Part shown: positions 25,938-50,582 of the stretch, one piece after another
Layout of the letters: each line of letters opens with the position of its first letter
How positions within the stretch are numbered: the first letter of the stretch is position 1
Virus record (IMG/VR): IMGVR_UViG_3300008735_000004
Span: 6,649 to 70,648 of that record
Length of the DNA stretch: 64,000 nt
Direction: 5' to 3' (one strand)
Source of the DNA: a virus
Program-made: the position numbers and the translations under genes
The notes under the pieces: model-generated
What the model was told of the DNA's origin: nothing
Seen by the model: the letters and a program-made list of their open reading frames with translations, nothing else
Database searches by the model: none

Positions 25938-26405
25938 TTACACTATTGGTGTAAATTCTCTTGCAACGAAATGTAGTACTTCCACTACATTCTCAGCTGA
26001 TGGATGTATAGTATGATTTCTTGAAATAATATTTACACCATCTATTGTGTATCCTTTCTGATGCTCTTCAAAATCATAGAAAGAACCAGGATCATTGTCC
26101 TTTTCGAAGCCTTCATTTTTCATGTTAATTAGTAATGAAAGTTCTTCATTCATGAAATCAGGCAAGGTTTTATCGTTTGTTAAATTTAATACCAGTGTTC
26201 CTTGTACTAAGCCTGTGCCTCGCATTACAGTGCTATACTCATGCTCATGTGTCTTATTTCCCTTTATATCAGCACGTGTGGCCGCGTGGCTATAGATAGG
26301 GGATGCTGTTTGATTTATACTAAATTGTATGTCCACTGCATCTAATTGTTTTACGGGGGTTGGATAGTATACATAAATATCTACGTCTATTCCTGAGAAA
26401 TACAT
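25938..26405 (-). CDS. Tail tube-like paralogue (155 aa)
   Basis: YFSGIDV, SPIYS and LVQGTLVLN match the tube pattern FSGSD...RPIF...VAGSVV. Ends HFVARE, versus TYVARH in the tube. Confidence 0.6.
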   Translation of the reverse strand: MYFSGIDVDIYVYYPTPVKQLDAVDIQFSINQTASPIYSHAATRADIKGNKTHEHEYSTVMRGTGLVQGTLVLNLTNDKTLPDFMNEELSLLINMKNEGFEKDNDPGSFYDFEEHQKGYTIDGVNIISRNHTIHPSAENVVEVLHFVAREFTPIV

Positions 26406-26893
26406 TAAATAACCCTCTTTGCTACAAAGTTATAAAATTCAGAGGCGGGTGTTGCGTCGCTTGAAAAACCAGTTTGCATACCGGTAACAGTTACATCTTT
26501 TATTGTACGTTGTAAGGAAGCCTCTACTAGTTCGTATTTCTTATTTTCTTTATTAAATTCCATTTTTCCATATTTAATTATAATATCAAAAGTATTTTGA
26601 GCAATCAACGGATCAGCACTTAGTAGGGGTGTATATGTTGTATCATCTTGTCCAGCCCTTATCAATGCATCTAAAGAAAATTCATCAGCTGTGCTAATAC
26701 TGAATTGACCTTGTATTAATTTTTCTCCTAAAAGAAATTCATCAGCTAACACAGACTTATAACCGTAAATTGGCATTTTCTGAAAAGATTCAGAATATTC
26801 TAATGTTATACTATCTGGAAGTACAGTTTTTACGGCTAATGTTTTAATAGATATTTCCGCATTATGGCCATTAAAATAAGTAACAGGTTCCAT
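26405..26893 (-). CDS. Tail tube-like paralogue (162 aa)
   Basis: YFNGHN, KMPIYGY, LIQGQFSI, FDIIIKYG, YNFVAK. Confidence 0.6.
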   Translation of the reverse strand: MEPVTYFNGHNAEISIKTLAVKTVLPDSITLEYSESFQKMPIYGYKSVLADEFLLGEKLIQGQFSISTADEFSLDALIRAGQDDTTYTPLLSADPLIAQNTFDIIIKYGKMEFNKENKKYELVEASLQRTIKDVTVTGMQTGFSSDATPASEFYNFVAKRVI

Positions 26894-29800
26894 TATCTAT
26901 ACCAACTAAATCCAGCTTTTTCACAAGTTAATTGAGTAGTATACTCTTTTTTAAAGTCAAAACGTTCGAGAGTTCCTAAGTCATTTCTTATTTCCTCTCC
27001 ACAGAAACTACCATTAAAAAATTTCTTTTGATATTCTTTTTGCATTTCCATAATTGCTTCATTTAAAGTACCGTATCTTTCAGGATTTACAAATATTTTT
27101 GGATAATCATCTTTAGCTTTTCCAGTTTCTGAGCCTATTAACCAGAAACCCCATTGAATTAATTTTTGCGAATCTGATAGTTCTTGTAATTTTATGCCTG
27201 TTATTTTACCAGTCTTAATACTTGATTTATCGGTTATACGTGTGTCGGTTGTCCCTGGAGGAGTATTATCGCTATCCTCAGTTTCATACTCTATAGAGCC
27301 TCCTAAAGCGTTTGCTATTTCTTTATCTACGTCTACGGGATAAGTAAATACAGATTCTTCCCATTCATTACCCGCGGAAGTCCATGTATACGCTGTCCAA
27401 ACATGCGGAGCAGCACAGTCACTTACATCTACATTCCCCGTCAAAATATTTCCTTGATCGTCTGCACAAATACCTCTGGAAAGACACATCGTCCTGTCAT
27501 TATTGTAGACAGTAGCGGAACAAGTACCAGCACCTTCACAATCTTCCGGGTTAATCCATTGAGCATCACTACAGAGTCCAGGATGATCTTGACATTCAGA
27601 CCGAGTTAGATGACTTAAATCTACTTGGGTATTCGTACAATTACCAGCTTCCCATGCTTCCCCTGTATTAATACGCAATGTACCGTCATTAACATTAACT
27701 GCTAGTTCCCAATCTTTTTTATATTTTTCATCTAGATCCGAGTCCCATTCAACAGCATCTGAGTTTAATCTAGCAGTCATAACGTAGCCTGCTTTTGTAT
27801 AAGCAATTTCAGGATTATAATATTCAATAAATTTGTATCCAACTTCCAAGCTATAATTATTATTATTATTATCTGACATATAAATAGCAGGATCTAGTTC
27901 AACGGGCGTATCTTCTGTACCTTCTGGATGAAGACCTGCATGATAAAATAATCTACGCAATGGATCAGCTTTTGTTATTTTTTCATTACCTATATTATAA
28001 TCTACAATGTCTGTAGCCTTACAGTAGCCCCCTTCCCAGGCTTTGTCCATTGCTAATCCCCAATCTTTGTTTGTGAGAGAGTACTCTGTAGTATCACCGG
28101 GGGTTACAAAGTTTACACTTTCTATTTTATCTAAATTATATTTAGTTTTCTCTTTTGTTACCATTATTGGAACTTCAGTTTCTAATGCAAAATCTCCTTT
28201 TATAGGCATTTCGGGCCATATCTCTCCACTATCATGAAGATAAGTTATAGATATAGGCAAAGGATTAGCCATATACTTAAAGGTATATGCTAAGTTTATT
28301 GTATCAGAAACTAGCGGTATATGTTGAATTCCGAAAGTAAAAGTATCCGGTGGATTATTTACATCACTATAATCTGTTATATCAAACATAGTTAAATCTG
28401 CTATATCAGAACCTTGAATATCATCCCATTCTTGTCTATCGGGTTTACTCGTTATTTCTATCTCTCTAATAGAAGTTCCTGACCATGTATCAGAAGACCA
28501 ATCAACAAAGTCATCATATTCTGTTTCTGGAATAATTACTGCATAATCTACTCCTAACAGCTCAGAATAATTTGGTATTTGAGCAGTTCCTTCTAGCATA
28601 TTAATTCCCATTCCTTCTTCATCTGAGGTATCCCATACTTCTGAAGCAGGAAACGAGGGAAGATCATATGTAAACGATATAGAACGAATAACGTCGTCTT
28701 TAAAATGAGCATTTGCCGTTGCTTTTACATGTCCCCTGGGGGCAGAGTCAATTCCCCAGATACCATTCCATATAGATTCTAGCCAACTTGTTGCATCTTC
28801 TTTTACTAAAAGTGGTATATTATTTATGGTTGCTTTCCAATTTCCAGCATTATCCTGCGCGGGGGTTGTTACGGTAATTGGATTTACACCATCAGCCCCT
28901 GTTTCCTGTAATAACTCGATTAGACCTTTTGAGTTCTCACAGCGTAATTGTAAATAATCTCTCCAATTATTTACAGCTCCAGCTCCCTTAATACTGTCCC
29001 AATCCCAATCATGGTAAGTACCATCATTGTGTAAAAATAGTGGTTTATATGCGCCAAAATCTAATTCAATGCTGGTTTGAGTTTCATCGGTTGGGTCAAA
29101 ATTAAAAGCTTCATAATTTACTTTAATAGAAATTGGAGAAAAAGTACCATTAGTATCCTTCCATTTATATGTGTAATCTGCTGTGATTTCATAAGCAGCA
29201 TCATTTTCTTTAATTGGAATATTTTTTATTTTGAATTTCCACTCAGAGCCATCAGCTGCTGATAAATCTTCTATATTATTTGTATCCCACTGTATCCCAT
29301 CTAATTTAATAATAGGTTCTGTTGTTAATTCATAATGAGTTAATCCATCCGGGTTAAGTACAGAAGGAGTTAAAGTAATTTCTTTTTCAAATGTATTGGT
29401 AGGTTGAGGAGGTGTTTCGTTGTTTAAATATTGTTTATAGGTTACTTCCATTTGCCCGAAGTCTGCATAAGAATGATTAAAGTCTAAACTAACTTGAATA
29501 GGATCTACAGGAAGATGAATTAATTTTTCATGAATATCAGCTATATCAACGGTAATACCAGTAGCACTTACAGTAATATCTCTATCAGTTGCTTCAGCCG
29601 GATAAGTCCACCACATATTTCCTGCAGAAGTCCATACATTCGGTTTCCATTGATATTGAGTAAATGTGGCAGGTTTCCATGTATATTGTTTCCATGTATT
29701 AGCTTTCCATTCATTTTGATTCCATACTGCGGGTTGCCAGGTGTGGGATTCCCATATTAAATCACTAGCTGTCCATGCAGTTGTATCTGGTACCCATGTA

Positions 29801-32800
29801 AAATATGTCCAATCTCCTCCATAATTGGTACAAGTAGTTTCATCAGGTGCACCTATTGTATCACCAGTAACAGGATCTACACAAGCACCTGCTGCTTCAC
29901 AATCTGTACGATTTGTATAGGAAGGTCCTCCACTACATGCCCCAACATTATCTAAACAACCCGTTTGATTATTATTATATAGAGAATCAACACAATACCC
30001 ACCTATTACTGCTTCACAAGAACCTTGATCAGTATACTGAGGGTATATATCTCCATTACTGTTAACACAAGTTCCCTCAGTCACACAAGCGTTCTCTGTA
30101 GTGAAAGTTGCTGATAAATCTTCGCCTTCATAGTTAAAACAACTACCTATTATATTACAGGCAGCTTCTGTCATCTGGCCATGTTGAATTTCTCCATTCA
30201 GAGACACACAATTACCCTCAGCTATGCAATTACCTTCTGTGGTTAAAGTTTCTACTTCTGCTCCTACGCTATCTAAACAAATACCAGCTACTGTACATAG
30301 ATTTTCTGCAGTACCTCCTGATAACTTTTCGCCTGTATAATCAAAACAATCTCCTTCAGCGATACAACTAGTTTCATCAGATAACCCAAGTACTACCTCA
30401 GTTTCTTGATCTAAACAAGCACCTATAGCATCACAAACTGTTTTAGTGGTATTATAAGTGAATGTGTTGCCATCCGGATGTGCACAATTACCGCGCTCTT
30501 CACAAGTAGTTTGAGTAGTGTGCGGTCCGTAGTCTCCTGAGTCACACCATCCCGAGTCTTCACTTAAAGTGGTACATCCGCTTTTATCGTTTTCATAGGT
30601 TGTAGTGGCGTAGTCCTGAATACTTGAATGTTCTGATGCATTAGAACAAGTTCCCTCGGCCACACAATCTGCATAATTATCCCAATCTGGATTAGTGCAA
30701 GCCGTGAAAGATGGGAAATTTAGAGTAACTTTATTATTACCGCCCCAACCATCTATAAAATAGTTATAATGATCTCCTACGTCTACTCCTTCTTCTGATT
30801 TAATTGGAAAAGTATAAGTTCCCGTCAAAATAGAACTTGTCCACTCTAATTGAGTAATATCAAATTCATAGGGATCAGTACTTTCTATAGGATCGTATAT
30901 CCCCAGGATAGTTACACCATTTTCTCCAGGAGTAAATTCGATTGTCCCTGCCGCAGGAGTATATTCTTTGTTTAGAATACTATTAGCTTGTGAGGCAATA
31001 TCATTGGAGAAATAATTCATAGCTGTATTTTCATCAAATTCTGCCTTAACAACTTCTGTAATAGATTCTATATACTGAACAGTATCTGGAAAAAATAATG
31101 TGGTGCCATAAGGACCTACCATTCCATCCATTGAGGTATGTTGTTCTTGTGGGATAAATCCACTTTTTACATTACTTTCGGAATATGTTTCTGAAAGAGT
31201 ATCTAGAAATCCTTCTACAGCAAATGTTGTATTATAATTACTAAAATCTTGAGTATGATTTGAAATTATTAAATTTGCATAAATACCTGTTACCGCCCCG
31301 GATGGATCTGTAATAGTGCATTGCTCTTCTGAAATAGATAATTTTTGATTTGGAGTAGTAATCTCAAAAGCTTCTGTTGCTACATCTGCTGTAATATTTT
31401 CCGAAGATGCACTTTGAGTTAGGTCTCTTTCTCCCTCTGCTGTTATATCTTGTATTGCAGGAGAAGGAACTAATACACCTACAACGCTAGCATTAGCACC
31501 ATAAGTTTCTAATTTGCCTAGGGGATCATATGTAATAATTTTATCTGTCAGATCAATGGGTGTCCCTGCGTCTATTAATTCTACTTTTATACTTTTTCTA
31601 ACTTCTTCTAATGCACTACTATGCCAGTATTTTGCAGACATTAAAGGACCGCTTGTAAGGTCATCTTTAATAATACCTGGAAGACTAAATCTCATACTTT
31701 TTTGATCTAAGTTTCCTACGGCATCATTTGATAATTCATTCCAAGTATGACCCGCCTCTATGCATTCAGCTTCAGAAGTAAGGGAAATATCACTGCAAGA
31801 TGCCTCAGCAGTACTTGATTGATACACTTTTTCTTGTGTAGCTACTTTTAATTCTAAGTTACTTGAGTATTCTTTTATTAAATCTTCTGATTTTACGTAA
31901 GCATCATCGGTACCCCCAAGTGTTACTCTAATCAAAGTATTATCATCTGGGTTTTCATCGGCAAATACATAATCATCAGCTGGATCTATGCTGTTAACTT
32001 TTTCAACTAGAAGATCGCCTAAAGAACAGTATGCCTTTATGTAATCTGCCCCAGGTGATCCTAAAATATTCCAGTCCTCTCTAATAGGAAACTCATTAGT
32101 ATTAAAGTAGTATTTACCTTCTCCTTTATTTAATTTATACTTAGTATTTGTATATGTTACATGGGGCGCAGCTTCTGCTGCTTCTGTAATCCAAGTATAT
32201 TTTGGCCCTTTAATATTAAAAAATTCATGAACACCAAACTTATTGCCCCAGCCAGGTATAGGATGTTTCTCCGTAGTTAAATAAGCTTTATCCATAATTA
32301 GAAAACGAGCATCTACTCCATCTATTTGAGCATTGTTTTCTTGTCCTGTAGCATTTACAAAATCAAAGGTACTAAGAGGGTTGAGAGAGGTCTCTGTAAG
32401 GGTCGTGCGGGAATCACTATTAGGGCCCGTAGTGTAAATTCCAGAAGGATCTATGGAGGATATATAAGTCGGTGTAGCATTCACGCCATTTTTAATAGAA
32501 ATACTTGGAGTTCTGTTAGGGTCATCAAAATAGGGAGGTACCTTTTCAGGTCTAACGTAAACTCTAAAAGCTTTCCAATTATCATCTGTTGAGTCCATAT
32601 AAACTGAAGATCCATCAGGATTACCCACGAAGTTAGAAATTTCATCTTCTAAGAGTTCTTTAGTTTCAGCCCATGTTCCGGGGGAGGCTCCACTTCCAGC
32701 CTCATCTGCTTCACACTTAGCTCTAGTATTATTAGCAGGATCATCAGTAGAGCCGCTACAAGTTCCTGGTATTCTATTAATAGACACATCAAAAGAGCCG

Positions 32801-33672
32801 GCAAATTCTCTTGGAGCCTCTGTCCAGAATGTTAAGGGTACTACTTCAACTCTAGTATTACTCCATATAAATTCTTCTGGTTTTTGAATATTATAAAAAG
32901 TTTCACCTTTTTCATATCCAAATAATCTATAAGGCTCAGCAGGTACAATTTCTATAGGAGAATTAGAAGGAGCATCAATTGATTCAGGAATAGAGGTATC
33001 GGGTACATCAGTGGGTCGTAAGTATTCTAAATCTTCAGCCACATATTGGAAGGTTGTTTCTAAATATGCTTCATCAGTGCCTGTTACTACGCCTTCATCA
33101 ACTAGGCGAACATTTTTAATTAGCATTTTGGATAATACTTGTTCGTCAGAATCCTGTCTACTTAGTTTACTTTTTCCACCAACAAAGCCATCTCCTATGG
33201 ATTTTTCTTCTTTGAAAAGAAGCATAATATCAAAAGGTGGAATTTCATCGGAAAAGGCAATCTCTCCGTTTTCTAAACTAGAGGTATCACCATATACTAA
33301 GTTATTGCTCCTATATCCTGCTTGATTGGAAGCAATTAGTTCATAGAAGCCTGCTCTATCAAAATTAACAAGAACAATACTTCCAGCGATTGTTCTTGTT
33401 CCTTTAGTATATGATTTAGCAGAAGCTTCTCCTAAGCGTCTAACTGGTGCCTTGTCCCTGTGTACGGAACAACTGATAGCCGCTAAGTTTGTAATTGGGA
33501 TATAAGCTTCCTTACTTATTTTACCATAAGTAAGAATAGAAGCATTGACATCAGCTCCAGAGAAAGCTATGTTTCGTCTGGGAGGTGCAGGCATATAAAC
33601 AGAACCTGCTACTCGTTGTTCCGCTACTGTTTCTTGATCAACAGGAATTGTTTTATTGGTATTATTTGCCAT
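26893..33672 (-). CDS. 2259-aa virion protein: N-terminal tube-fold domain plus long acidic extension with nested Cys/Trp modules
   Basis: aa ~30-220 parallel the tube protein (FSGAD, SVHRDKAPV, RTIAGSIVLVNFDR, DEIPPFDI, FQYVA). Cys-pair repeat clusters at ~29608-30705 and ~27345-27645. Confidence 0.75.
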   Translation of the reverse strand: MANNTNKTIPVDQETVAEQRVAGSVYMPAPPRRNIAFSGADVNASILTYGKISKEAYIPITNLAAISCSVHRDKAPVRRLGEASAKSYTKGTRTIAGSIVLVNFDRAGFYELIASNQAGYRSNNLVYGDTSSLENGEIAFSDEIPPFDIMLLFKEEKSIGDGFVGGKSKLSRQDSDEQVLSKMLIKNVRLVDEGVVTGTDEAYLETTFQYVAEDLEYLRPTDVPDTSIPESIDAPSNSPIEIVPAEPYRLFGYEKGETFYNIQKPEEFIWSNTRVEVVPLTFWTEAPREFAGSFDVSINRIPGTCSGSTDDPANNTRAKCEADEAGSGASPGTWAETKELLEDEISNFVGNPDGSSVYMDSTDDNWKAFRVYVRPEKVPPYFDDPNRTPSISIKNGVNATPTYISSIDPSGIYTTGPNSDSRTTLTETSLNPLSTFDFVNATGQENNAQIDGVDARFLIMDKAYLTTEKHPIPGWGNKFGVHEFFNIKGPKYTWITEAAEAAPHVTYTNTKYKLNKGEGKYYFNTNEFPIREDWNILGSPGADYIKAYCSLGDLLVEKVNSIDPADDYVFADENPDDNTLIRVTLGGTDDAYVKSEDLIKEYSSNLELKVATQEKVYQSSTAEASCSDISLTSEAECIEAGHTWNELSNDAVGNLDQKSMRFSLPGIIKDDLTSGPLMSAKYWHSSALEEVRKSIKVELIDAGTPIDLTDKIITYDPLGKLETYGANASVVGVLVPSPAIQDITAEGERDLTQSASSENITADVATEAFEITTPNQKLSISEEQCTITDPSGAVTGIYANLIISNHTQDFSNYNTTFAVEGFLDTLSETYSESNVKSGFIPQEQHTSMDGMVGPYGTTLFFPDTVQYIESITEVVKAEFDENTAMNYFSNDIASQANSILNKEYTPAAGTIEFTPGENGVTILGIYDPIESTDPYEFDITQLEWTSSILTGTYTFPIKSEEGVDVGDHYNYFIDGWGGNNKVTLNFPSFTACTNPDWDNYADCVAEGTCSNASEHSSIQDYATTTYENDKSGCTTLSEDSGWCDSGDYGPHTTQTTCEERGNCAHPDGNTFTYNTTKTVCDAIGACLDQETEVVLGLSDETSCIAEGDCFDYTGEKLSGGTAENLCTVAGICLDSVGAEVETLTTEGNCIAEGNCVSLNGEIQHGQMTEAACNIIGSCFNYEGEDLSATFTTENACVTEGTCVNSNGDIYPQYTDQGSCEAVIGGYCVDSLYNNNQTGCLDNVGACSGGPSYTNRTDCEAAGACVDPVTGDTIGAPDETTCTNYGGDWTYFTWVPDTTAWTASDLIWESHTWQPAVWNQNEWKANTWKQYTWKPATFTQYQWKPNVWTSAGNMWWTYPAEATDRDITVSATGITVDIADIHEKLIHLPVDPIQVSLDFNHSYADFGQMEVTYKQYLNNETPPQPTNTFEKEITLTPSVLNPDGLTHYELTTEPIIKLDGIQWDTNNIEDLSAADGSEWKFKIKNIPIKENDAAYEITADYTYKWKDTNGTFSPISIKVNYEAFNFDPTDETQTSIELDFGAYKPLFLHNDGTYHDWDWDSIKGAGAVNNWRDYLQLRCENSKGLIELLQETGADGVNPITVTTPAQDNAGNWKATINNIPLLVKEDATSWLESIWNGIWGIDSAPRGHVKATANAHFKDDVIRSISFTYDLPSFPASEVWDTSDEEGMGINMLEGTAQIPNYSELLGVDYAVIIPETEYDDFVDWSSDTWSGTSIREIEITSKPDRQEWDDIQGSDIADLTMFDITDYSDVNNPPDTFTFGIQHIPLVSDTINLAYTFKYMANPLPISITYLHDSGEIWPEMPIKGDFALETEVPIMVTKEKTKYNLDKIESVNFVTPGDTTEYSLTNKDWGLAMDKAWEGGYCKATDIVDYNIGNEKITKADPLRRLFYHAGLHPEGTEDTPVELDPAIYMSDNNNNNYSLEVGYKFIEYYNPEIAYTKAGYVMTARLNSDAVEWDSDLDEKYKKDWELAVNVNDGTLRINTGEAWEAGNCTNTQVDLSHLTRSECQDHPGLCSDAQWINPEDCEGAGTCSATVYNNDRTMCLSRGICADDQGNILTGNVDVSDCAAPHVWTAYTWTSAGNEWEESVFTYPVDVDKEIANALGGSIEYETEDSDNTPPGTTDTRITDKSSIKTGKITGIKLQELSDSQKLIQWGFWLIGSETGKAKDDYPKIFVNPERYGTLNEAIMEMQKEYQKKFFNGSFCGEEIRNDLGTLERFDFKKEYTTQLTCEKAGFSWYR

Positions 33673-33683
33673 TTAAGATATGT

Positions 33684-33719
33684 TAAGATATGGGACAGAG
33701 GATTCCATCCCATATCTTA
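33684..33719 (-). terminator. 12-bp perfect hairpin after tail tube gene (terminator or processing site)
   Basis: TAAGATATGGGA-N12-TCCCATATCTTA, with no clear U-tract. Confidence 0.55.
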
Positions 33720-33742
33720 TGTTTAGACTTGTGTTCAGTTTC

Positions 33743-34345
33743 TTATATGATTGCTTCACTAGATTGAATACCTGTAGTATCCGCACCAGCTGCAGCAGTT
33801 CCATCAACCGGACGCCACGCATCGATATGCCTAGCAACATAGGTAAACTGAGCTTCTTGGATACCATCATCAATAGAGATACCAGCACCCTCAGAAATAA
33901 TAGTAACGTCAAATATACGCATTACCATTTGTTTTCCGAATTCATTTTTACCATAAAGAGTAATATCAAAAGGTGGGATTTCGTCAGCATAAACTGCTAC
34001 GCGAGAATCATCGCCAAAAGGATTACTATCTGTAGTATTAAACTCATTACCAGGATTATAACTTTGATCAGTTCTATAAACTGTAGAAAGTTCCATAATG
34101 TCCCGCAAAGCAGCACGATCAAAACAAGTCATCACAACTGATCCTGCCACACCACGTTTGTTCTTTGAGTATGAAAGAGCGTTTGGATCCCCGCATACAA
34201 AAATAGGACGAACTTCCCTATTAACTGACCAAGATATTCCTTGGATATTTCCTATTTCAACATTACCAAATACGGATTTAATGTCTGAACCAGAGAAAGT
34301 CGTAACTAGACCTGGATTCGTTTCAAGGTTTGATTTAAAAGCCAT
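33743..34345 (-). CDS. Tail tube protein (200 aa)
   Basis: Immediately downstream of the sheath gene, of tube size, with a strong RBS (TAGGAG) and a beta-rich pattern shared with the paralogues. Confidence 0.75.
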   Translation of the reverse strand: MAFKSNLETNPGLVTTFSGSDIKSVFGNVEIGNIQGISWSVNREVRPIFVCGDPNALSYSKNKRGVAGSVVMTCFDRAALRDIMELSTVYRTDQSYNPGNEFNTTDSNPFGDDSRVAVYADEIPPFDITLYGKNEFGKQMVMRIFDVTIISEGAGISIDDGIQEAQFTYVARHIDAWRPVDGTAAAGADTTGIQSSEAII

Positions 34346-34463: not shown

Positions 34464-36824
34464 CTATGCAATGTCATCAGCGGTTAACTGAACATTGTAA
34501 TGTACGTCTCTAATTTCAAATTGTGGACTTAAGGTTAATGGAATAGTAATTTTTCCAACAACCCGTTCACCCGGTGTCATAACCACAGGTGCTTTAAATC
34601 CGCGAAGGACTCTAGGCACAAGTGCGTCACCAAGCTGCTTATCCAAAGAACTTTGGAATGCTTGCAATAGAGCTGCACTAGAAACTTTACCAATAAAGTC
34701 TTTAGCTACGCTTCTGCAGATATCCAAGGCTTCTTGCAAGATAAGGACAGTCATTAAGTTTTCAAAGTCTGATCCAGCAGTTGCTAATGATCTTGATTCT
34801 GTTAATTTAACAGCTCCATTATCAATAGTTCCTACCGCGATTCTAGAATCAGAAAGAACGTCGACTTGACGTTTTCCGCTAATCTGATCAATTTCAGTAT
34901 AACGATATCTTAAACCCTGCATTCCTGGAATTGAGTGTCTATAAATAGCTTCTTCAGTAGGCATTGCTGCAATTAAACCTGCAACAGCTGCTGTACCGAT
35001 TGCTGAGTATCGAACACCATTCTTTGAGAATATTGGTTCTAGATCTACTGCGTACATGAAGGGTTGGTGAAAATCAGATAACACAGTTCCCGCATTTGTA
35101 CTAGATCCACCGAGACCAGATACAGTTAAATTAGCTACACGACCAGTAGATGGATGAGATATATCTTCATATCTTTTGATTCGTCCACCAACTCCGCTAC
35201 CTACCAAGGGTTCGAAGCCAATAACACCTACCATTTCGCCATTAAACTTTTCTAAAAAAGCTGACATTTGTGGTGCATATCCAGCAGCATTTCCATCAGC
35301 AAGAACAGCATCAGCTGTCAGATCTGTGACACACATTACATCAAAGAAATCATAGATAAAATGCTCGTATGCTTCATCCAGGTCAGATTTTAATTCATCG
35401 TTAGTCATTACTGTTCCATCTTGTCCACCCGCTAAACTATAAGTACTAGCCCATGAAGGGTCAGCCGCTAAGTAAAGGTAAGAGAATCCTAATACTACAT
35501 TTGTATCAGAAAGATCCGGAGCATCAATTACAATACTATTAGAAGATTCTTCATAAGCAGATTCTTCATAGTATTTTTTCTGAGCATAACGTAGTACCAT
35601 TGTATAGGAAGGAACTGCACCAAATCGTAGAGATTTGCCAGCAGCAGATGCAATTTTATATTGAAATTCTCCTGCAGGGTTATCCGCTTTTACTACTGTT
35701 TTCTTGTTTTCACTAGTATCAAATGCTACTGATACTGTAACAGTTTTGTCTGCAAAAGCAACGCTTGATAGGTCCCAAGAACACGCATTCACAGCACTTA
35801 CTGTTAAAGTTTCATCTGAAAAAGTTTCTGTAGTATTAGCATCTGCTTCATCAGTTACAGTAACTACTGCATTTGTCATATCAATTGCAGCATCTCCGAG
35901 AATATCAGCATCAAAACTAATTGCAACCGTGGCCTCTCCAGAACCATTTGCTAGTACTCCGGATACAATTTCTGTACCTTTGTAATAAACTTTGTTGGCA
36001 TCAGCAGTTAATAAATTGGCCCCAGCAGTGATGGGTTCAAATGCTTGTCCATTGCTATTCAATAAGTCATCAGCAGCTGTTTCGTCTGCAACAGAACCTG
36101 AAGGAATTGAAAAGCTTGCGCTTCCAGTAAATTCATATTCTGCAGAAGCGCTAACCGTATATACTGAATTAATTTGCGCAACTGGCCATAAAGAGTCGGT
36201 AGCTTCTTCTTCCATATTTACGCTTAGTTGGTTATTAGAGTATGTTCCAGCAGCTGCTGAGAATTCTAATAAAGCTTCGTTGTCTGCTGTAGCTGATACA
36301 GCAAAGATAATATCTTTAGTATTTGGATCGACATTGATAGCCGCAGCTAATTCATCAATCGTTAAATCAACGCTAAATTTAGAACTAAGTTCAGTTTTTG
36401 GATTATATACATAAATCCACCCAACTCCGTTAGCGTCTTGTTTCTTTTCAATTGTTACATCATTATATACACTACCTTCATTGATCGCTTCGATTTCAGC
36501 AACTTTATTTCCGCCTACATCTTGTAGCTCCGTAATAGCTCTGGTAGCATTTACACCACCAATTCTCATACCCCAGGTATCTGGTGTAGCAGAACTACCT
36601 GCTTGAGCATCAATACATTCTTTTAAACCACGAACAAGTGTTCCTTCGCCAAATGCACCAAAAAGCTCTTCAGCTTCTGCTGGTGACTTAACTTGGAGAG
36701 GCTCATACATCGGTCCATCTGTAGCGGTACCGAGAATTACTACTCGTCGATTAGTAGGTCCCTGTGGAACCGATCTATCAAGGTTGTTGTCATATAAAGT
36801 TCTAGTTACTTTTGGTGTTGCCAT
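34464..36824 (-). CDS. Tail sheath protein (786 aa)
   Basis: N-terminal VVILGTATDGPMYEP...AEELFG, LAGGQDG, and C-terminal sheath-type IPLTLSPQFEIRDVHYNV. Confidence 0.88.
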   Translation of the reverse strand: MATPKVTRTLYDNNLDRSVPQGPTNRRVVILGTATDGPMYEPLQVKSPAEAEELFGAFGEGTLVRGLKECIDAQAGSSATPDTWGMRIGGVNATRAITELQDVGGNKVAEIEAINEGSVYNDVTIEKKQDANGVGWIYVYNPKTELSSKFSVDLTIDELAAAINVDPNTKDIIFAVSATADNEALLEFSAAAGTYSNNQLSVNMEEEATDSLWPVAQINSVYTVSASAEYEFTGSASFSIPSGSVADETAADDLLNSNGQAFEPITAGANLLTADANKVYYKGTEIVSGVLANGSGEATVAISFDADILGDAAIDMTNAVVTVTDEADANTTETFSDETLTVSAVNACSWDLSSVAFADKTVTVSVAFDTSENKKTVVKADNPAGEFQYKIASAAGKSLRFGAVPSYTMVLRYAQKKYYEESAYEESSNSIVIDAPDLSDTNVVLGFSYLYLAADPSWASTYSLAGGQDGTVMTNDELKSDLDEAYEHFIYDFFDVMCVTDLTADAVLADGNAAGYAPQMSAFLEKFNGEMVGVIGFEPLVGSGVGGRIKRYEDISHPSTGRVANLTVSGLGGSSTNAGTVLSDFHQPFMYAVDLEPIFSKNGVRYSAIGTAAVAGLIAAMPTEEAIYRHSIPGMQGLRYRYTEIDQISGKRQVDVLSDSRIAVGTIDNGAVKLTESRSLATAGSDFENLMTVLILQEALDICRSVAKDFIGKVSSAALLQAFQSSLDKQLGDALVPRVLRGFKAPVVMTPGERVVGKITIPLTLSPQFEIRDVHYNVQLTADDIA

Positions 36825-37997: not shown

Positions 37998-39430
37998 TAT
38001 TTAGTCCTCGAAGTAAATCCTCGGCTCATTCCTCTGGATTCGAAATCTGACCCACCAGTTGCCCCCGGAGATGCACTAGTAGTGCTTGTGGGTAAGCTTT
38101 GGTGAGTGTGGTCCGTATAGGGACTAGTTGAAGAATCTTTTGTTTTTAATTTATGCTCTAGTGCTACTATTTTAAGATCCAATGCTGCAATATTATCTTT
38201 GAGATATTGAGCAAGATTTCTTCCAGACATTTTAAAGTCTCCAAGAGAAATAGAACCTGCTCCTGCGCCAGTAGGATCAGTAAAATAAGTTGATAGAATA
38301 TCTTTCTTAGTTCGCGCTACTACATATTCAGTAACTCTTAATGGCACATTTAAAGAATCAATAGTACCATTCCATAATTGGGCAGCAGTTATGCTATGAC
38401 GGTGTATGGATAAGGCTACTGTAAAATCATCGTATTGATTTACAAAAGGCCCAATTTCTAATTTTGTTTCATTGATAGAGGCATAGAAAGGCGATAATAA
38501 ACTCATAAAAGAAAGAATAGGCGTATGTTCATTAACTGATATATCAAATCCTATTTCAAAAGTTCTATTAATATCAAAATCTAATGTAATATACCCCTCT
38601 TCATCTGGAGTTTTACTAATGCATGCTATGCTATCAACGGTTAAAGCATCCGCGCCTATAACTGCTAATAGATCTTTTTCTTCTTGATCTAAATTATCAT
38701 ATAAAATTTTAGACGTTAGGTATACGTCTTTTCCTAGTACGAAAGGATTTTGCAAGTTATCAATCCAGTATGCTTTTGGATTTAATCCAAAACCTAAAGG
38801 ATGATTTGCTAAAGCAGATACTTGTACATCTCGTGTCCACGTTTCACCAGCTGCTTCACAGTTTACTAATGTTTTATGCTGAGGATCACTGCACGTACCT
38901 CCCTCAGGTACACGACCATCAAAGCTTACCGTTAGACTTCCAAGTCCATACTGCATGATACTCCCTTCTGCTGGAATTGCAGAGGCAAAATATAATTCTT
39001 CAGGTATAGCTTCTATATCTTCTACAACTGTTTCTCCCGTTTGATCTACTTGAGTTACGGCTTCAATAACAGTAAATGTCGCAGAATAGCTATTTTGTAA
39101 AGAGGTTCCGTCGGCTGCTTTTATACCATAATTACTTTTAGGAATATATAAAGCATATGAAGCTCCTGCAATCAGGTCTGATTTAGGAGATACTCTAACA
39201 ATTGTTCCCGGATCAATTAGAGATAATTCAATATCTACTGGGGTTTCGTTACCCCCATCAGGCATTGTTCTAAAAAGAGTTACCGCGTACGATAATAGAG
39301 AGGAAGATGCTACTTCTGAGGAAAATGTAATGTCTAGGGGAGAATCTTTTGGAACATCAGCAGCCCCGAGTAATGCAATTGGATTTCCAGATGCATCAGT
39401 AAATTCTGTTTTTAAAATATTGAAAGCCAT
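37997..39430 (-). CDS. Putative head-tail adaptor with N-terminal Ig-like domains (477 aa)
   Basis: N-terminal Big_5-like segment (ITFSSEV...VRVSPKSDLIAGASYALYI...YSATFT), one Cys/Trp module, and C-terminal adaptor-like SISLGDFKMS. Confidence 0.55.
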   Translation of the reverse strand: MAFNILKTEFTDASGNPIALLGAADVPKDSPLDITFSSEVASSSLLSYAVTLFRTMPDGGNETPVDIELSLIDPGTIVRVSPKSDLIAGASYALYIPKSNYGIKAADGTSLQNSYSATFTVIEAVTQVDQTGETVVEDIEAIPEELYFASAIPAEGSIMQYGLGSLTVSFDGRVPEGGTCSDPQHKTLVNCEAAGETWTRDVQVSALANHPLGFGLNPKAYWIDNLQNPFVLGKDVYLTSKILYDNLDQEEKDLLAVIGADALTVDSIACISKTPDEEGYITLDFDINRTFEIGFDISVNEHTPILSFMSLLSPFYASINETKLEIGPFVNQYDDFTVALSIHRHSITAAQLWNGTIDSLNVPLRVTEYVVARTKKDILSTYFTDPTGAGAGSISLGDFKMSGRNLAQYLKDNIAALDLKIVALEHKLKTKDSSTSPYTDHTHQSLPTSTTSASPGATGGSDFESRGMSRGFTSRTK

Positions 39431-40327: not shown

Positions 40328-41692
40328 TTAAGAAGCAGTGGGCCCAGCATCAGGTGTGTCACCACTCAAAGATACTTGGTTAACATTGTCAAATACATAG
40401 TTATCTTTGATAACAACGTCTTTTGCAATACCAACACCTTTACCTTGAGCGAGAAGTGCCATACCCCAACGTTCTTTAATCTTCATAGCATGGATGTCAA
40501 CTTCCGGATCTTTCCATTCATCTACAGAAATGCCTTCTTTAGTCATTAATAGACCAGCATTTTGAGAATCAGCCATGATGATATCTGTTACGTATACGCT
40601 TGAATCATCTGCAACATTATCAGCTCCAGCATTAGCGCCTGTAGCACCAGATGCATATTTAACATGAGGTGAAACAATCACTTTAAGAGGTGAAGGTAGA
40701 TATTTAGGCGCAATATTAAAACTTGAGCCGAGAGGATTCAAAGTTGTTACGAACGGATTTGGACCAGCAACGCCACCTTCTTGTGGGTTACGTCCAGTTG
40801 GATCTTGTTTGTATCCTAATCCACCAAAACCTGTTCCAAATGTTTGTGTACCGCCACCGTTTGGTAAACCGTTAGTAGCAATAACACCATTTGCGAATAA
40901 GATTTCACGCATTTTAGGATCGTTCATAAATGTTTTCCAAGCAAGTGGATTCATCAAAAGAGTATCATAATTGAAGCCTCTTAAGTAACCATAAGCCCAC
41001 ATATCAAAGACATCATTAATGGTCATAGAACCATTAAATTTACCATCGATACCGCGACCTTTAGTATAACCTAATTCGCCGGAATCATCACTATTGCTGA
41101 AAATGGTTTGACCCATATCATTTAATAGAGCGATACCATACTCTTCTTTATGTCTTGCCAATGCACGGCCAGACATTCTCAACCACATTCCGAATACATC
41201 GAAAAGGTTGTCATCAATCACTTCTTGTGTCATGCGCATTTTCAATCCATGCTTAGCAATGCCAAGTTGGATGATATGGCCTTCTCCGAAAGACATATCA
41301 GCTTCTGGATATTCCTGACCTTCAGGAACTTCAGCAGCATGAAATGCACCCATAGCACCAATTTCTACAGTGCGACCTGGGCCTTCATATGCAATCTGTT
41401 TAAACAGATTGGGAACGACTAGCAAGTCTGGTTCAATAGCTTCTTGCACTAAGGAAGTTACAGTTGTACCAATGAATCTTGTAAGATCTTCTGTAAAGAA
41501 TACATCTTTAAATTCATCAATACCTTCTGCTTCCATGTGTTTTCCAATACTGAACACATCTTTGAAGTCGAAATGCAAGTTCAACGCATCTTTATCTTCA
41601 GTTTCTATCCCAACAATACCATTGTTAGTAAAGATATCATAGATAAGTTTTTGAGCGTGAGCCTGCTTTGCTGTTAGTTTTGTCACTTTCAT
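40328..41692 (-). CDS. Major capsid protein (HK97 fold, 454 aa)
   Basis: AAEVPEGQEYPE, KHGLKMRMTQEVIDD, ALARHKE, DTLLMNPLAW and KIKERWG patterns. Lies after the protease and scaffold and has its own terminator. Confidence 0.9.
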   Translation of the reverse strand: MKVTKLTAKQAHAQKLIYDIFTNNGIVGIETEDKDALNLHFDFKDVFSIGKHMEAEGIDEFKDVFFTEDLTRFIGTTVTSLVQEAIEPDLLVVPNLFKQIAYEGPGRTVEIGAMGAFHAAEVPEGQEYPEADMSFGEGHIIQLGIAKHGLKMRMTQEVIDDNLFDVFGMWLRMSGRALARHKEEYGIALLNDMGQTIFSNSDDSGELGYTKGRGIDGKFNGSMTINDVFDMWAYGYLRGFNYDTLLMNPLAWKTFMNDPKMREILFANGVIATNGLPNGGGTQTFGTGFGGLGYKQDPTGRNPQEGGVAGPNPFVTTLNPLGSSFNIAPKYLPSPLKVIVSPHVKYASGATGANAGADNVADDSSVYVTDIIMADSQNAGLLMTKEGISVDEWKDPEVDIHAMKIKERWGMALLAQGKGVGIAKDVVIKDNYVFDNVNQVSLSGDTPDAGPTAS

Positions 41693-48204: not shown

Positions 48205-50582
48205 TATAAATCTGTTCCTGCTTTATTTAATATTGATTGAAGTTCCTGTATATCATCAGAAGACATGCTCTTTAGACACTCGCCTTTCTTGGATCCTTGA
48301 ATAGCATCAGAAGCTTCCTCGGAAGAAAGTCCCATGTATTGCATCATAAATTTTTGTACCTCTGCATCTTCTTGTAAAACTAATAAACCAATAGGGTCTA
48401 TGTCATTATTAGTTATGTCAATCTTATTCCCCGTTGGCATAGAAGTTAGAAAATTTCCTGCCCCACCGCTGCTAACATTAGTTATATTTTGTGAACCTGT
48501 ATTTCCTGAGACATTTACACCGGTACCTGTAGTATAGGTACCCTCGCCATTTCCTGTTTGCATTGTAGTTTCTTGGCTAGTTCCATCTTTATCAAGCTCA
48601 GAATTAGATTTATCTTTATTTTTATATTTATTACAAATAAGAATACCATCAGCATTTAAAGCTAATAACCAATCAATCATATTAATTAATCCTTTAAGCA
48701 TGGGTACTAGTCTACTTTCTTCAACTTCTTTATCATCACTGTTCCATGCTTCATTAATAGCTTTATTTTTCTGTTTTAAAAGCATCATATTTTTTATACG
48801 CTGAATAAAGGCCTGAACGGATTTAAAGAAACCATCTTTTCCGAAAATAGAAGTTATTAACATAATTAAAACTTTTTCCCAAGGTAAACATTTTACGGCA
48901 GCAGAATAATAAGTACTACCAGGTTTCCAGATACCACCATTAGTTTCACATGTTTCTTTATCTCCAAATTCAGTTAAATAACGTCCATCCGTATCAAAGC
49001 AATGTCCTTGGGCAGCGGCTTGTTTATCAGCCTCTTCCTCCCATTCCTTCTTACGGTCAGCCACCCATTTAACCGATTGAGTCATTAGATGTTCTCTAAT
49101 AACGTCTACCATTGTCATTAAAATTAATTGAACACTATTGGTAGTTAATTCAATCATATTAAAACCTAAAGCCGGTAAACCAACTTTACCGTGTTTTGTT
49201 TCTAATAATACTAATAATATTTGTGCAATACTTTTAACATCGTCTAGCCATGCCTTTTGCTCTGATAAGAAGTCTTCCAATGACATTGGATTCTCTTTGT
49301 AATATACAATTTCTTCTAGAATCTTTTCAAGTCTTTTTTCAAGTTTATTTAAAGCCGAAGTCATGGTAGCAAGTGACCATTCTCCGCCCCCTAAATACAT
49401 ATCTACAATCGAATCTAAAATCTTTTTTTCAATTTTGCTAGAGGTGCTAGTTTCATCTAATGCATTAATAAAATCACTGGCCACTTCTAACTGAGATATT
49501 CCGCTTTCTAATTTTGATATATTACCAGTAAGCATTGGTTTTATTTTTGTCAAAACTTTTTGCTCTTGCTCAAGTAACCATATTTTAGCCGGAGAGAGGT
49601 TATTAGGATCAAGTTCATGCTCTGCTAAATAATCTAAAAGTTCTGGTTGATTTTTCATAATTTCATAAAAAATACAACAATAAAATTGAACATCAACAGC
49701 AGTGTCCTGCGCTATTTGCAAGAATCCATTAGTAGTGTCTGCCGCAGTATTTAGTACCCCATTACCTACATCATAAGAAAACCCTCCTAAGAGGTTACTC
49801 ATCATATCGTCAACACTGGGCTTTGTAGGATCAACATAATGGCCTAAGAGAAGAGGGGCTTCGTCATACTGATTATCTGAAACTTCTAATGGTACATATT
49901 GTTTAAAGTCTGGACTCGGGAAAGAAGAACCTTTTCCAGGTTTATTATAGAACTCTATTATAAGTTTTCCACCATTCTTCCATAAATCCTCATGCTCTCC
50001 TTCTTTAGGTTCTAACTTTATAGAGCTAACAGCCATGGTAAAAACAGCCGTTTGTTTTTTATTACCACTAACATTGTCGTAAGAAGTATCTTTATCAAAG
50101 ACGGAAAATAAAGTAGCTTTAGTAGGTCCTATCCAAAAATTAGCATCTTTACTATAAATTATGCCATTTTCCTTTGATGCTTTTTTCAGACCGCCACTGG
50201 GAATTCTTAAAGGATCATCACCGGGATAATCTTCAATAATAATTTTATTTGAATCATTGGCTGCCAATTCGCGAAATTGTCCATACCTTATTTCAAAATA
50301 ATCACTACCTCCCTTAGTTTTAATCTTAGGATCACGTCCCCAGTCACCTACTTTATATGCAAGAGCATTTTTTAAGATAGATTCAAGTTTCAAAATAGGA
50401 TGAGATGTGGCAGTAATTATATCCGGCTTAGCTGTCATAGCCTCGCCTTTATGCATCAGAATATCAACAGTTGCTTGTAACTCTGCTTCAGCTTTTGCTT
50501 TAGCTTCGTCTACAGCTTCATCGGTGTTCTCTTGTAATGTGTCCAAATAGCTTTGAGCTAGTTGTTCCATATCTGATGGCAT
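48204..50582 (-). CDS. Hypothetical protein (792 aa) with one Cys/Trp module
   Basis: TAATG-coupled on both sides. Helical, and contains GHCFDTDG...TCETNGGIW. Confidence 0.7.
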   Translation of the reverse strand: MPSDMEQLAQSYLDTLQENTDEAVDEAKAKAEAELQATVDILMHKGEAMTAKPDIITATSHPILKLESILKNALAYKVGDWGRDPKIKTKGGSDYFEIRYGQFRELAANDSNKIIIEDYPGDDPLRIPSGGLKKASKENGIIYSKDANFWIGPTKATLFSVFDKDTSYDNVSGNKKQTAVFTMAVSSIKLEPKEGEHEDLWKNGGKLIIEFYNKPGKGSSFPSPDFKQYVPLEVSDNQYDEAPLLLGHYVDPTKPSVDDMMSNLLGGFSYDVGNGVLNTAADTTNGFLQIAQDTAVDVQFYCCIFYEIMKNQPELLDYLAEHELDPNNLSPAKIWLLEQEQKVLTKIKPMLTGNISKLESGISQLEVASDFINALDETSTSSKIEKKILDSIVDMYLGGGEWSLATMTSALNKLEKRLEKILEEIVYYKENPMSLEDFLSEQKAWLDDVKSIAQILLVLLETKHGKVGLPALGFNMIELTTNSVQLILMTMVDVIREHLMTQSVKWVADRKKEWEEEADKQAAAQGHCFDTDGRYLTEFGDKETCETNGGIWKPGSTYYSAAVKCLPWEKVLIMLITSIFGKDGFFKSVQAFIQRIKNMMLLKQKNKAINEAWNSDDKEVEESRLVPMLKGLINMIDWLLALNADGILICNKYKNKDKSNSELDKDGTSQETTMQTGNGEGTYTTGTGVNVSGNTGSQNITNVSSGGAGNFLTSMPTGNKIDITNNDIDPIGLLVLQEDAEVQKFMMQYMGLSSEEASDAIQGSKKGECLKSMSSDDIQELQSILNKAGTDL

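Follow-up and report, generated by a model that had tools for sequence, protein, structure and literature searches.

A probably nested arrangement of cysteine (Cys) and tryptophan (Trp) repeats was identified in a virion protein encoded on a 64,000-nucleotide (nt) stretch of viral DNA (IMG/VR record IMGVR_UViG_3300008735_000004, positions 6,649 to 70,648). The whole of this stretch is referred to here as the window, and its source is an uncultured jumbo phage. The protein, P0001, is the product of 26893-33672 on the minus strand (P and L labels denote the proteins and loci that were analysed). Within amino acids (aa) 990-1355, corresponding to nt 30705-29608, thirteen open Cys-pair units run in tandem and are followed by thirteen short returning strands that end in an aromatic residue. 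The explanation considered probable is a nested fold-back ladder, in which the chain would run out through the units and return through the strands, each strand closing one unit. Protein repeats are normally arranged in tandem; front and back halves that are separated and kept equal in number would amount to another mode of protein construction and elongation, and such a nested layout should be recognisable from sequence alone.

A first-pass annotation of the window had listed 13 Cys-pair modules followed by exactly 13 aromatic strands, and translation and parsing of P0001 bore this out. The 26 Cys residues of aa 992-1281 fall into 13 pairs with loops of 10-23 aa. The 12 linkers between units are 5-9 aa long, and nine of them measure exactly 5 aa and mostly follow the form x3-G-x. 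The distance from the last Cys (C1281) to the first returning Trp is 7 aa. The first seven strands after C1281 read TNYGGDW, TYFTW, VPDTTAW, TASDLIW, ESHTW, QPAVW and NQNEW, and strands 8-13 read KANTW, KQYTW, KPATF, TQYQW, KPNVW and TSAGNMW. All are 5-7 aa long, with 12 of the 13 ending in Trp and one in Phe. A chance origin of the 13-unit chain is excluded: when the entire protein was shuffled 2000 times, no chain exceeded 3 units, and 2000 shuffles of aa 985-1365, in which the 26 Cys and 15 Trp were kept, produced a longest chain of 5, reached once, versus the 13 observed. Two Trp residues lie outside the 13:13 scheme. W1042 (30574-30576) stands right before C1043 and closes the 9-aa linker after unit 2, and W1355 (29608-29610) directly follows the last strand. 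Because these two residues are loose, the count for P0001 carries an uncertainty of one (13 plus or minus 1). An assignment of W1042 to unit 2 as its closing Trp was considered and rejected, since some strands would then be in surplus. A trailing Trp comparable to W1355 is also present in the analysed proteins P0005 (SLW) and P0006.

The isolated, closed form of the module that had been described in the same annotation is present in P0001 at aa 305-334, 626-644 and 2224-2257, together with a cluster of four open units at aa 2012-2086 and its four returning strands. A search of the phage's own 70.6-kb genome fragment turned up the 13:13 and 4:4 clusters only. Single closed units were further found in a 477-aa and a 792-aa protein, which are other virion proteins of the window (Table 1).

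Relatives of the array were sought at several levels. Among 1.84 billion representatives, aa 985-1365 matched three distant proteins, and a profile search at longer lengths yielded 2 matches that added one further relative. A homologue search with aa 960-1400 at similar lengths returned solely the 90% cluster of P0001 itself, and the 14 members retrieved from it are near-identical to P0001 and thus without variation to compare. No loci related to aa 985-1365 were found among viral contigs, and a DNA pattern for two joined units matched 0 viral contigs. Two degenerate DNA patterns matched 11 and 54 viral contigs, the latter yield being near a rough chance estimate, with about half of the matches real once translated. 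Arrays were counted with a fixed parser (loop 8-26, linker 4-9, Trp anchors 4-8 apart); its 523 rows included many matches in non-coding frames, and the rows used were open reading frames (ORFs) with recognisable units.

The first-pass annotation had proposed that the numbers of modules and strands should co-vary in homologues, and this proposal was upheld. The largest data set is family A, a fibre-like phage family that was enlarged by 31 metagenome and 41 viral loci. Its 77 loci gave 38 distinct C-terminal sequences, with 36 arrays and 2 sequences without a parsed array. Unit and strand counts were equal in 35 of the 36 arrays, which were 2:2 (4 arrays), 3:3 (19), 4:4 (2) and 5:5 (10), and the remaining array, 3:1, is incomplete because its locus ends within it. 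The array-bearing segments of this family measure 187, 211-237, 249 and 273 aa, a step of approximately 24 aa that equals one 17-aa unit plus one 7-aa strand. In family B, counts of 1:1 (L006 and L011) versus 2:2 (L025, L032 and L037) were obtained. P0004 has 8 units and 8 strands, and P0003, which is cut at its N-terminus, has at least 9 units and 10-11 strands. A run of k open units followed by k aromatic-ended strands was found as 13:13 and 4:4 in P0001, in the 35 equal arrays of family A, as 8:8 in P0004 and, as detailed next, as 9:9 in P0005.

In P0005, nine units are followed by 3 Trp-ended and 6 Arg-ended strands. The DNA encoding this protein (L138) is from a Candidatus Absconditabacterales genome, and all six Arg codons are CGA. 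The accessible part of a published account states that Absconditabacterales read CGA and CGG as Trp (PMC13092985), and with the six CGA codons read as Trp the array of P0005 becomes 9:9. Its conserved Trp ladder would thus be an independent witness, from within a protein, of the reported CGA-to-Trp reassignment. Invariant Trp positions may serve as a natural reporter of codon meaning, as exemplified by CGA at six Trp positions of this Absconditabacterales protein. The P0005 ORF (L138:4565-5290, plus strand) contains 13 CGA, 0 CGG and 9 TGG codons and 68 in-frame TGA codons. Arrays are absent from loci L139-L143, which are relatives of P0005.

Additional Cys residues were observed at the ends of some arrays. 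In P0004 (aa 467-678), one extra Cys precedes the first nested unit and another stands right after the last strand (PLCSC ... TWTCSS), and extra Cys also flank the hairpin ends of the L001, L003 and L004 arrays (GYC ... GPVMC). Cys in these positions would be well placed to form one more disulfide, joining the two ends of the hairpin. At the C-termini of the L001 family, as noted for L001 and P0006, PA14/GLEYA domains of the sugar-binding type are present (E 1e-11 to 2e-7), and the nested fingers therefore sit in likely adhesins.

Comparison of close relatives allowed us to analyze how arrays grow. The L001 and L003 proteins are orthologues with 81.8% identity over 236 columns, and their arrays differ by one contiguous 24-aa gap at the turn. 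The 24-aa insert adds two Cys and one Trp; it is absent from L004, and L002 begins it before its locus ends. The insert is a nested insertion: a closed unit, complete in itself, has entered the preceding unit between its Gly and its Trp. Similarly, aligned 2:2 and 3:3 members of family A are distinguished by a single uninterrupted gap, again located at the turn. The earlier claim that each module was inserted just before the final strand of the previous one agrees with the L001/L003 insert, and growth purely by nesting is shown for this one event only. A second insertion site besides the Gly/Trp junction is suggested by another cluster at the L001 locus (L001:6861-9776, minus strand), where a closed unit lies inside the loop of another, C SDTTDT [C..C EAVPATW] TVVTHTNETD C VNAGFTW. 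A head-closure neck protein (gp14-like, phrog_679) encoded at L008:5561-6439 on the minus strand has two closed units one after the other, both provided with a Trp of their own, so that repetition of the unit occurs in non-nested form as well.

The same annotation had proposed that the strands pair last-in-first-out. This order, in which unit n would meet strand 14-n, is supported indirectly by the indel at the turn, a pairing rule, a model of a 5:5 array and a co-fold of separated halves. According to the pairing rule, which was formulated post hoc from the same data on seven arrays, a 7-aa strand (TSAGNxW type) partners a unit with a 10-aa loop. The rule fits 31 of 44 pairs in last-in-first-out order versus 19 of 44 in forward order, and permutations within arrays gave a mean of 23.4 (standard deviation 2.9, P=0.010). 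For the 5:5 model, AlphaFold2 was supplied with a 273-aa segment of family A that contains two closed units, the 5:5 array and two more closed units, together with 32 aligned sequences. The mean predicted local distance difference test score (pLDDT) of the model was 73, with closed units above 90, nested units 1, 4 and 5 at 55-80 and strands at 50-84. Each confident unit consists of a loop, a short helix around its second Cys (C2) and then a short strand, and the G-T-C linkers and Trp strands likewise form short strands in the model. When the chain was split and the five units were co-folded with the strand block, a score of 0.33 was obtained, the best of 3 controls scoring 0.00. The co-fold runs agree in at least 98% of contacts with a partner pLDDT of at least 76, and the unit chain has a pLDDT of 77-84 with its own strands versus 34 with two unrelated partners, values that express the model's own confidence only.

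A number of results weigh against a nested fold-back ladder with equal counts. W1042 and W1355 are unexplained by the 13:13 scheme. In the second cluster of P0001 the parser detects 3 Trp and the fourth strand ends in Phe, which makes that count ambiguous. P0006 is ambiguous by one, being parsed as 3:2 and 3:4, and in a further five-unit cluster of this protein that was read by eye four aromatic strands are clear. An extra Cys causes the parser to report 4:3, 5:4 and 4:3 in the L001 family. The pairing rule was derived from the data to which it was applied, and P0003 (3 of 7 pairs) and L003 (0 of 3) deviate from it. In the 5:5 model, nested units 2-3 fall below a pLDDT of 50 and the predicted template modelling score (pTM) is 0.41. 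A structure prediction of the array itself, which the first-pass annotation had suggested for aa ~990-1360, was run with AlphaFold2 on aa 970-1380 without an alignment; it gave a pLDDT of 34.6 and no usable model, and hence no direct view of unit n in contact with strand 14-n. The co-fold would favour a fold-back, weakly so by the tool's own calibration: of 80 solved complexes 58 reach the mark applied, as do 2 of 110 mismatched pairs, but scores of 0.60 or lower occur in only 7 of those 80 complexes and in both mismatches, counts that hold roughly only since an author-made alignment was used. Because the 13:13 model is unusable and the support from the co-fold is weak, we infer the last-in-first-out register. 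With regard to growth, MAFFT placed the difference between 3:3 and 5:5 members of family A in one 48-column gap in alignment A2 and in three gaps in alignment A3, and owing to this disagreement turn-only growth is not established for this step. Finally, a tandem repeat with a 15-nt period (29673-29710, 2.6 copies, 87% matches) lies within the block of 5-aa Trp strands and suggests that strands may also duplicate alone. It is the sole DNA-level repeat that TRF reports in 29400-30900.

This last observation bears on an alternative route to the same hairpin fold, in which units and strands were duplicated separately as tandem blocks and selection restored the 1:1 ratio. Such a history is considered unlikely, although several features would fit it: no repeat matching that of the strand block was detected among the units, units 5-9 are mutually alike, as are strands 5-12, and the 3:3 versus 5:5 difference is broken into separate gaps in A3. 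Separate duplication is, however, at odds with the single contiguous L001/L003 insert, in which a complete unit arrives at the turn with its Trp, and with the single gap that distinguishes 2:2 from 3:3 arrays. Unequal complete arrays, the expected intermediates of this route, number 0 of 35 in family A.

It was also considered whether the hairpin is closed across chains, with the Trp strands closing the units of a neighbouring subunit in a trimer or hexamer. Trimers or hexamers are usual for tail proteins, the N-terminal domain of P0001 is tube-like and tube proteins form rings, and equal numbers of units and strands would persist in an oligomer as well. Nevertheless, an exchange between chains appears improbable. 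In single closed units the Trp follows C2 by 6-13 residues, so that it can only close the unit to which it belongs, the same spacing recurs in the innermost unit of every array, and the co-fold with one copy per half gave a consistent, weakly scored pose. Even less credence is given to two independent repeat domains, one Cys-rich and one Trp-rich, whose equal numbers would be coincidental or reflect a shared length requirement. The two halves do form separate sequence blocks and AlphaFold2 provided no model of the 13:13 array, but the numbers are equal in 35 of 36 family A arrays (k=2-5), unrelated proteins likewise show equality at k=1, 2, 8, 9 and 13, the single L001/L003 indel carries one unit plus one Trp, and the confidence of the co-folded unit chain is high with its own strands and low with unrelated partners. 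Metal binding by the Cys residues (e.g. Zn or Fe) instead of disulfides is hardly credible, for although the C-x5-C spacing from C2 to the next C1 resembles metal-binding knuckles and phage proteins fold in a reducing cytoplasm, single units have two Cys, too few for a site, the 26 Cys of the 13 units are not a multiple of four, and the extra Cys of P0004 and the L001 family occur as pairs that bracket the array, one Cys ahead of the first unit and one behind the last strand, which is where an additional staple would be expected.

For the nested fold-back ladder, the following architecture is proposed. The building block would be a unit of approximately 20-30 aa that comprises a first Cys (C1), a loop, a short helix with C2, x3-G, one or two residues and Trp. 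A C1-C2 disulfide would close the loop, and the Trp-ended strand would return alongside the residues that immediately precede C1, bringing both ends of the unit together. As its ends meet, a whole unit could sit between the Gly and the Trp of another. In aa 992-1354 this insertion would be 13 deep: the chain would lead outward through 13 loop-helix knuckles connected by C-x3-G-x-C linkers, turn after C1281 and return through the 13 strands of 5-7 aa, where every unit would be closed by its own Trp, the last one opened being the first to close. The product would be a ladder of two strands and 13 rungs, each rung stapled by a disulfide. The length of this stiff finger would be set by the number of rungs. 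The finger may project from the extension of a virion protein that is a paralogue of the tail tube and may become oxidised once the virion is outside the cell. The out-and-back, disulfide-stapled filament envisaged in the first-pass annotation would more aptly be described as a finger or rod formed by a single chain.

The 13-deep array of P0001 is the deepest among the arrays found. Most likely it serves as a finger, stapled by disulfides and adjustable in length, on a virion protein paralogous to the tail tube; that it acts as a spacer or contact finger on the tail protein is a guess from context. A broader proposition, which we hold to be evenly balanced, is that a self-inserting unit with meeting ends follows a bracket grammar of k openers and then k closers in place of tandem repetition, by which phages and some bacteria could change the length of a rod in single mutational steps of approximately 24 aa. 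Such an array would constitute a compact disulfide-stapled scaffold of adjustable length. In uncultured marine phages it may also point to regions of virion proteins that are exposed and change rapidly, and might help to locate host-contact surfaces.

Comparison with known families provided no model for the array in Pfam, NCBIfam or PHROGs, and all matches of P0001 lie within aa 25-216. With aa 985-1365 and aa 2000-2120, no Pfam match was obtained at E values up to 10 except DUF6799 (E 0.36), and the arrays of the relatives had no Pfam match. No relative was found in the PDB when the array, the profiles A1 and A2 or a 27-aa single unit served as query in sequence searches. Foldseek and VIA-align searches with the 273-aa 5:5 model gave no PDB match, which is no proof of a new fold, and a search of the ESM Atlas gave no usable match. 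A repeat of this kind is not described in the accessible portions of the literature searched. The Pam3 paper (PMC9942802) was set aside, as the disulfides treated in its accessible part connect fibre and wedge and are unrelated.

A single closed unit was recognised in gp8, the baseplate wedge protein of phage T4. Residues 142-160 of gp8, CSIASLTDKDECLKLGGKW, form a single C-x10-C-x3-G-G-x-W-T segment that is identical to P0001 aa 626-644 at 9 of 19 positions (E 2e-4 in a single BLASTP comparison with aa 601-660). At this sequence level the Cys, Gly and Trp residues of both segments are in register, so that aa 626-644 represents a closed unit of the gp8 type (C-x10-C, followed by x3-G-(G)-x-W), and both proteins are virion tail proteins. 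In contrast to P0001, gp8 contains one closed copy without nesting. As gp8 is present in solved structures (PDB 1N7Z and 10 further entries of the same sequence), the single unit has already been seen in a crystal, and the earlier statement that no named family exists holds for Pfam, NCBIfam and PHROGs with this qualification. A review of the T4 tail does not, in its accessible part, treat the gp8 segment as a module (PMC3004832). The nested arrays are without counterpart in the material searched.

Two other folds offer partial analogies. The thrombospondin type 1 repeat (TSR, Pfam TSP_1) is small, elongated and stapled by disulfides, and its Trp side chains form a ladder. It consists of closed 6-Cys domains in tandem, whereas P0001 has open halves followed by an equal number of closing halves, and the arrays have no match to TSP_1 in Pfam at E values up to 10. 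In the needle at the tip of the T4 long tail fibre (gp37) and in antiparallel coiled-coil arms, the chain also runs out to a tip and back with arms matched in length. Such arms pair like with like, strands with strands or helices with helices, whereas those of P0001 would be unlike, with units of approximately 23 aa leading out, strands of 5-7 aa leading back and one disulfide per rung.

All genes of the window are on the minus strand, and ORF calls and family matches identify a contractile-tailed phage. The 200-aa tube protein matches gp140, the tail tube of the Bacillus jumbo phage 0305phi8-36, and a protein of phage KLEB27-3 annotated as tail tube; a PDB sequence search with it was without match. 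The first 230 aa of P0001 are 26% identical to gp141 (ORF141) of 0305phi8-36 (tblastn, E 5e-9), which is annotated as 'tail tube paralog' and was detected in virions by mass spectrometry. The window and the gp139-gp145 region of 0305phi8-36 have the same gene order of sheath, tube, tube paralogue, chaperonins and giant protein. The gp141 match and the shared gene order therefore designate P0001 as a virion protein, the extension of which has grown to approximately 2000 aa. Similarity and position after the sheath gene place the N-terminal domain, and this domain only, in the tail tube lineage of gp140 and gp141. In contrast to P0001 with its 2259 aa, gp141 is encoded by a gene of 1509 nt, and all Cys/Trp units of P0001 are confined to the extension. 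The accessible part of the comparative paper on 0305phi8-36 is silent on gp141 (PMC2147016).

Table 1. Cys/Trp units and associated genes and domains in the window
Feature	Position	Strand	Basis
Thirteen open Cys-pair units in tandem, C992 to C1281	29830..30699	-	Translation, unit parse; shuffle controls
Thirteen returning aromatic-ended strands, aa 1282-1354, plus extra W1355	29608..29829	-	Translation, parse
Single closed unit, aa 305-334, C-x14-C-x13-W	32671..32760	-	Motif read in translation
Single closed unit, aa 626-644, CSDISLTSEAEC IEAGHTW	31741..31797	-	Motif; aligns with T4 gp8
Second cluster, four open units, C2012 to C2086	27415..27639	-	Translation, parse
Four returning strands of second cluster (AAPHVW, TAYTW, TSAGNEW, EESVF)	27346..27414	-	Translation
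Single closed unit, extreme C-terminus, aa 2224-2257	26902..27003	-	Motif
Single closed unit in 477-aa Big_5-domain protein, CSDPQHKTLVNC EAAGETW	38837..38893	-	Motif; Big_5 match
Single closed unit in 792-aa protein, C-x17-C ETNGGIW	48927..49001	-	Motif
P0001 gene, 2259-aa virion protein, tail-tube paralogue with giant extension	26893..33672	-	ORF, stop-free translation; position after sheath and tube genes; synteny
N-terminal tube-like domain of P0001, aa ~25-216	33025..33600	-	phrog_9206 match at aa 25-158, E 1.2e-18; tblastn
Sheath	34464-36824	-	phrog_16991
Tube gene, 200-aa product	33743-34345	-	phrog_9206; matches tail tube gp140
Major capsid protein	40328-41692	-	Family match

Three tube-like genes follow one another in this part of the window (25938-34345), namely 33743-34345, the start of 26893-33672 and 26405-26893, all of which match phrog_9206. 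They are followed by small genes and then by ORFs of 2451, 2994 and more than 2774 aa, an arrangement that parallels gp140-gp145 of 0305phi8-36. P0001 contains 45 Cys residues versus 0-5 in the three adjoining giant ORFs.

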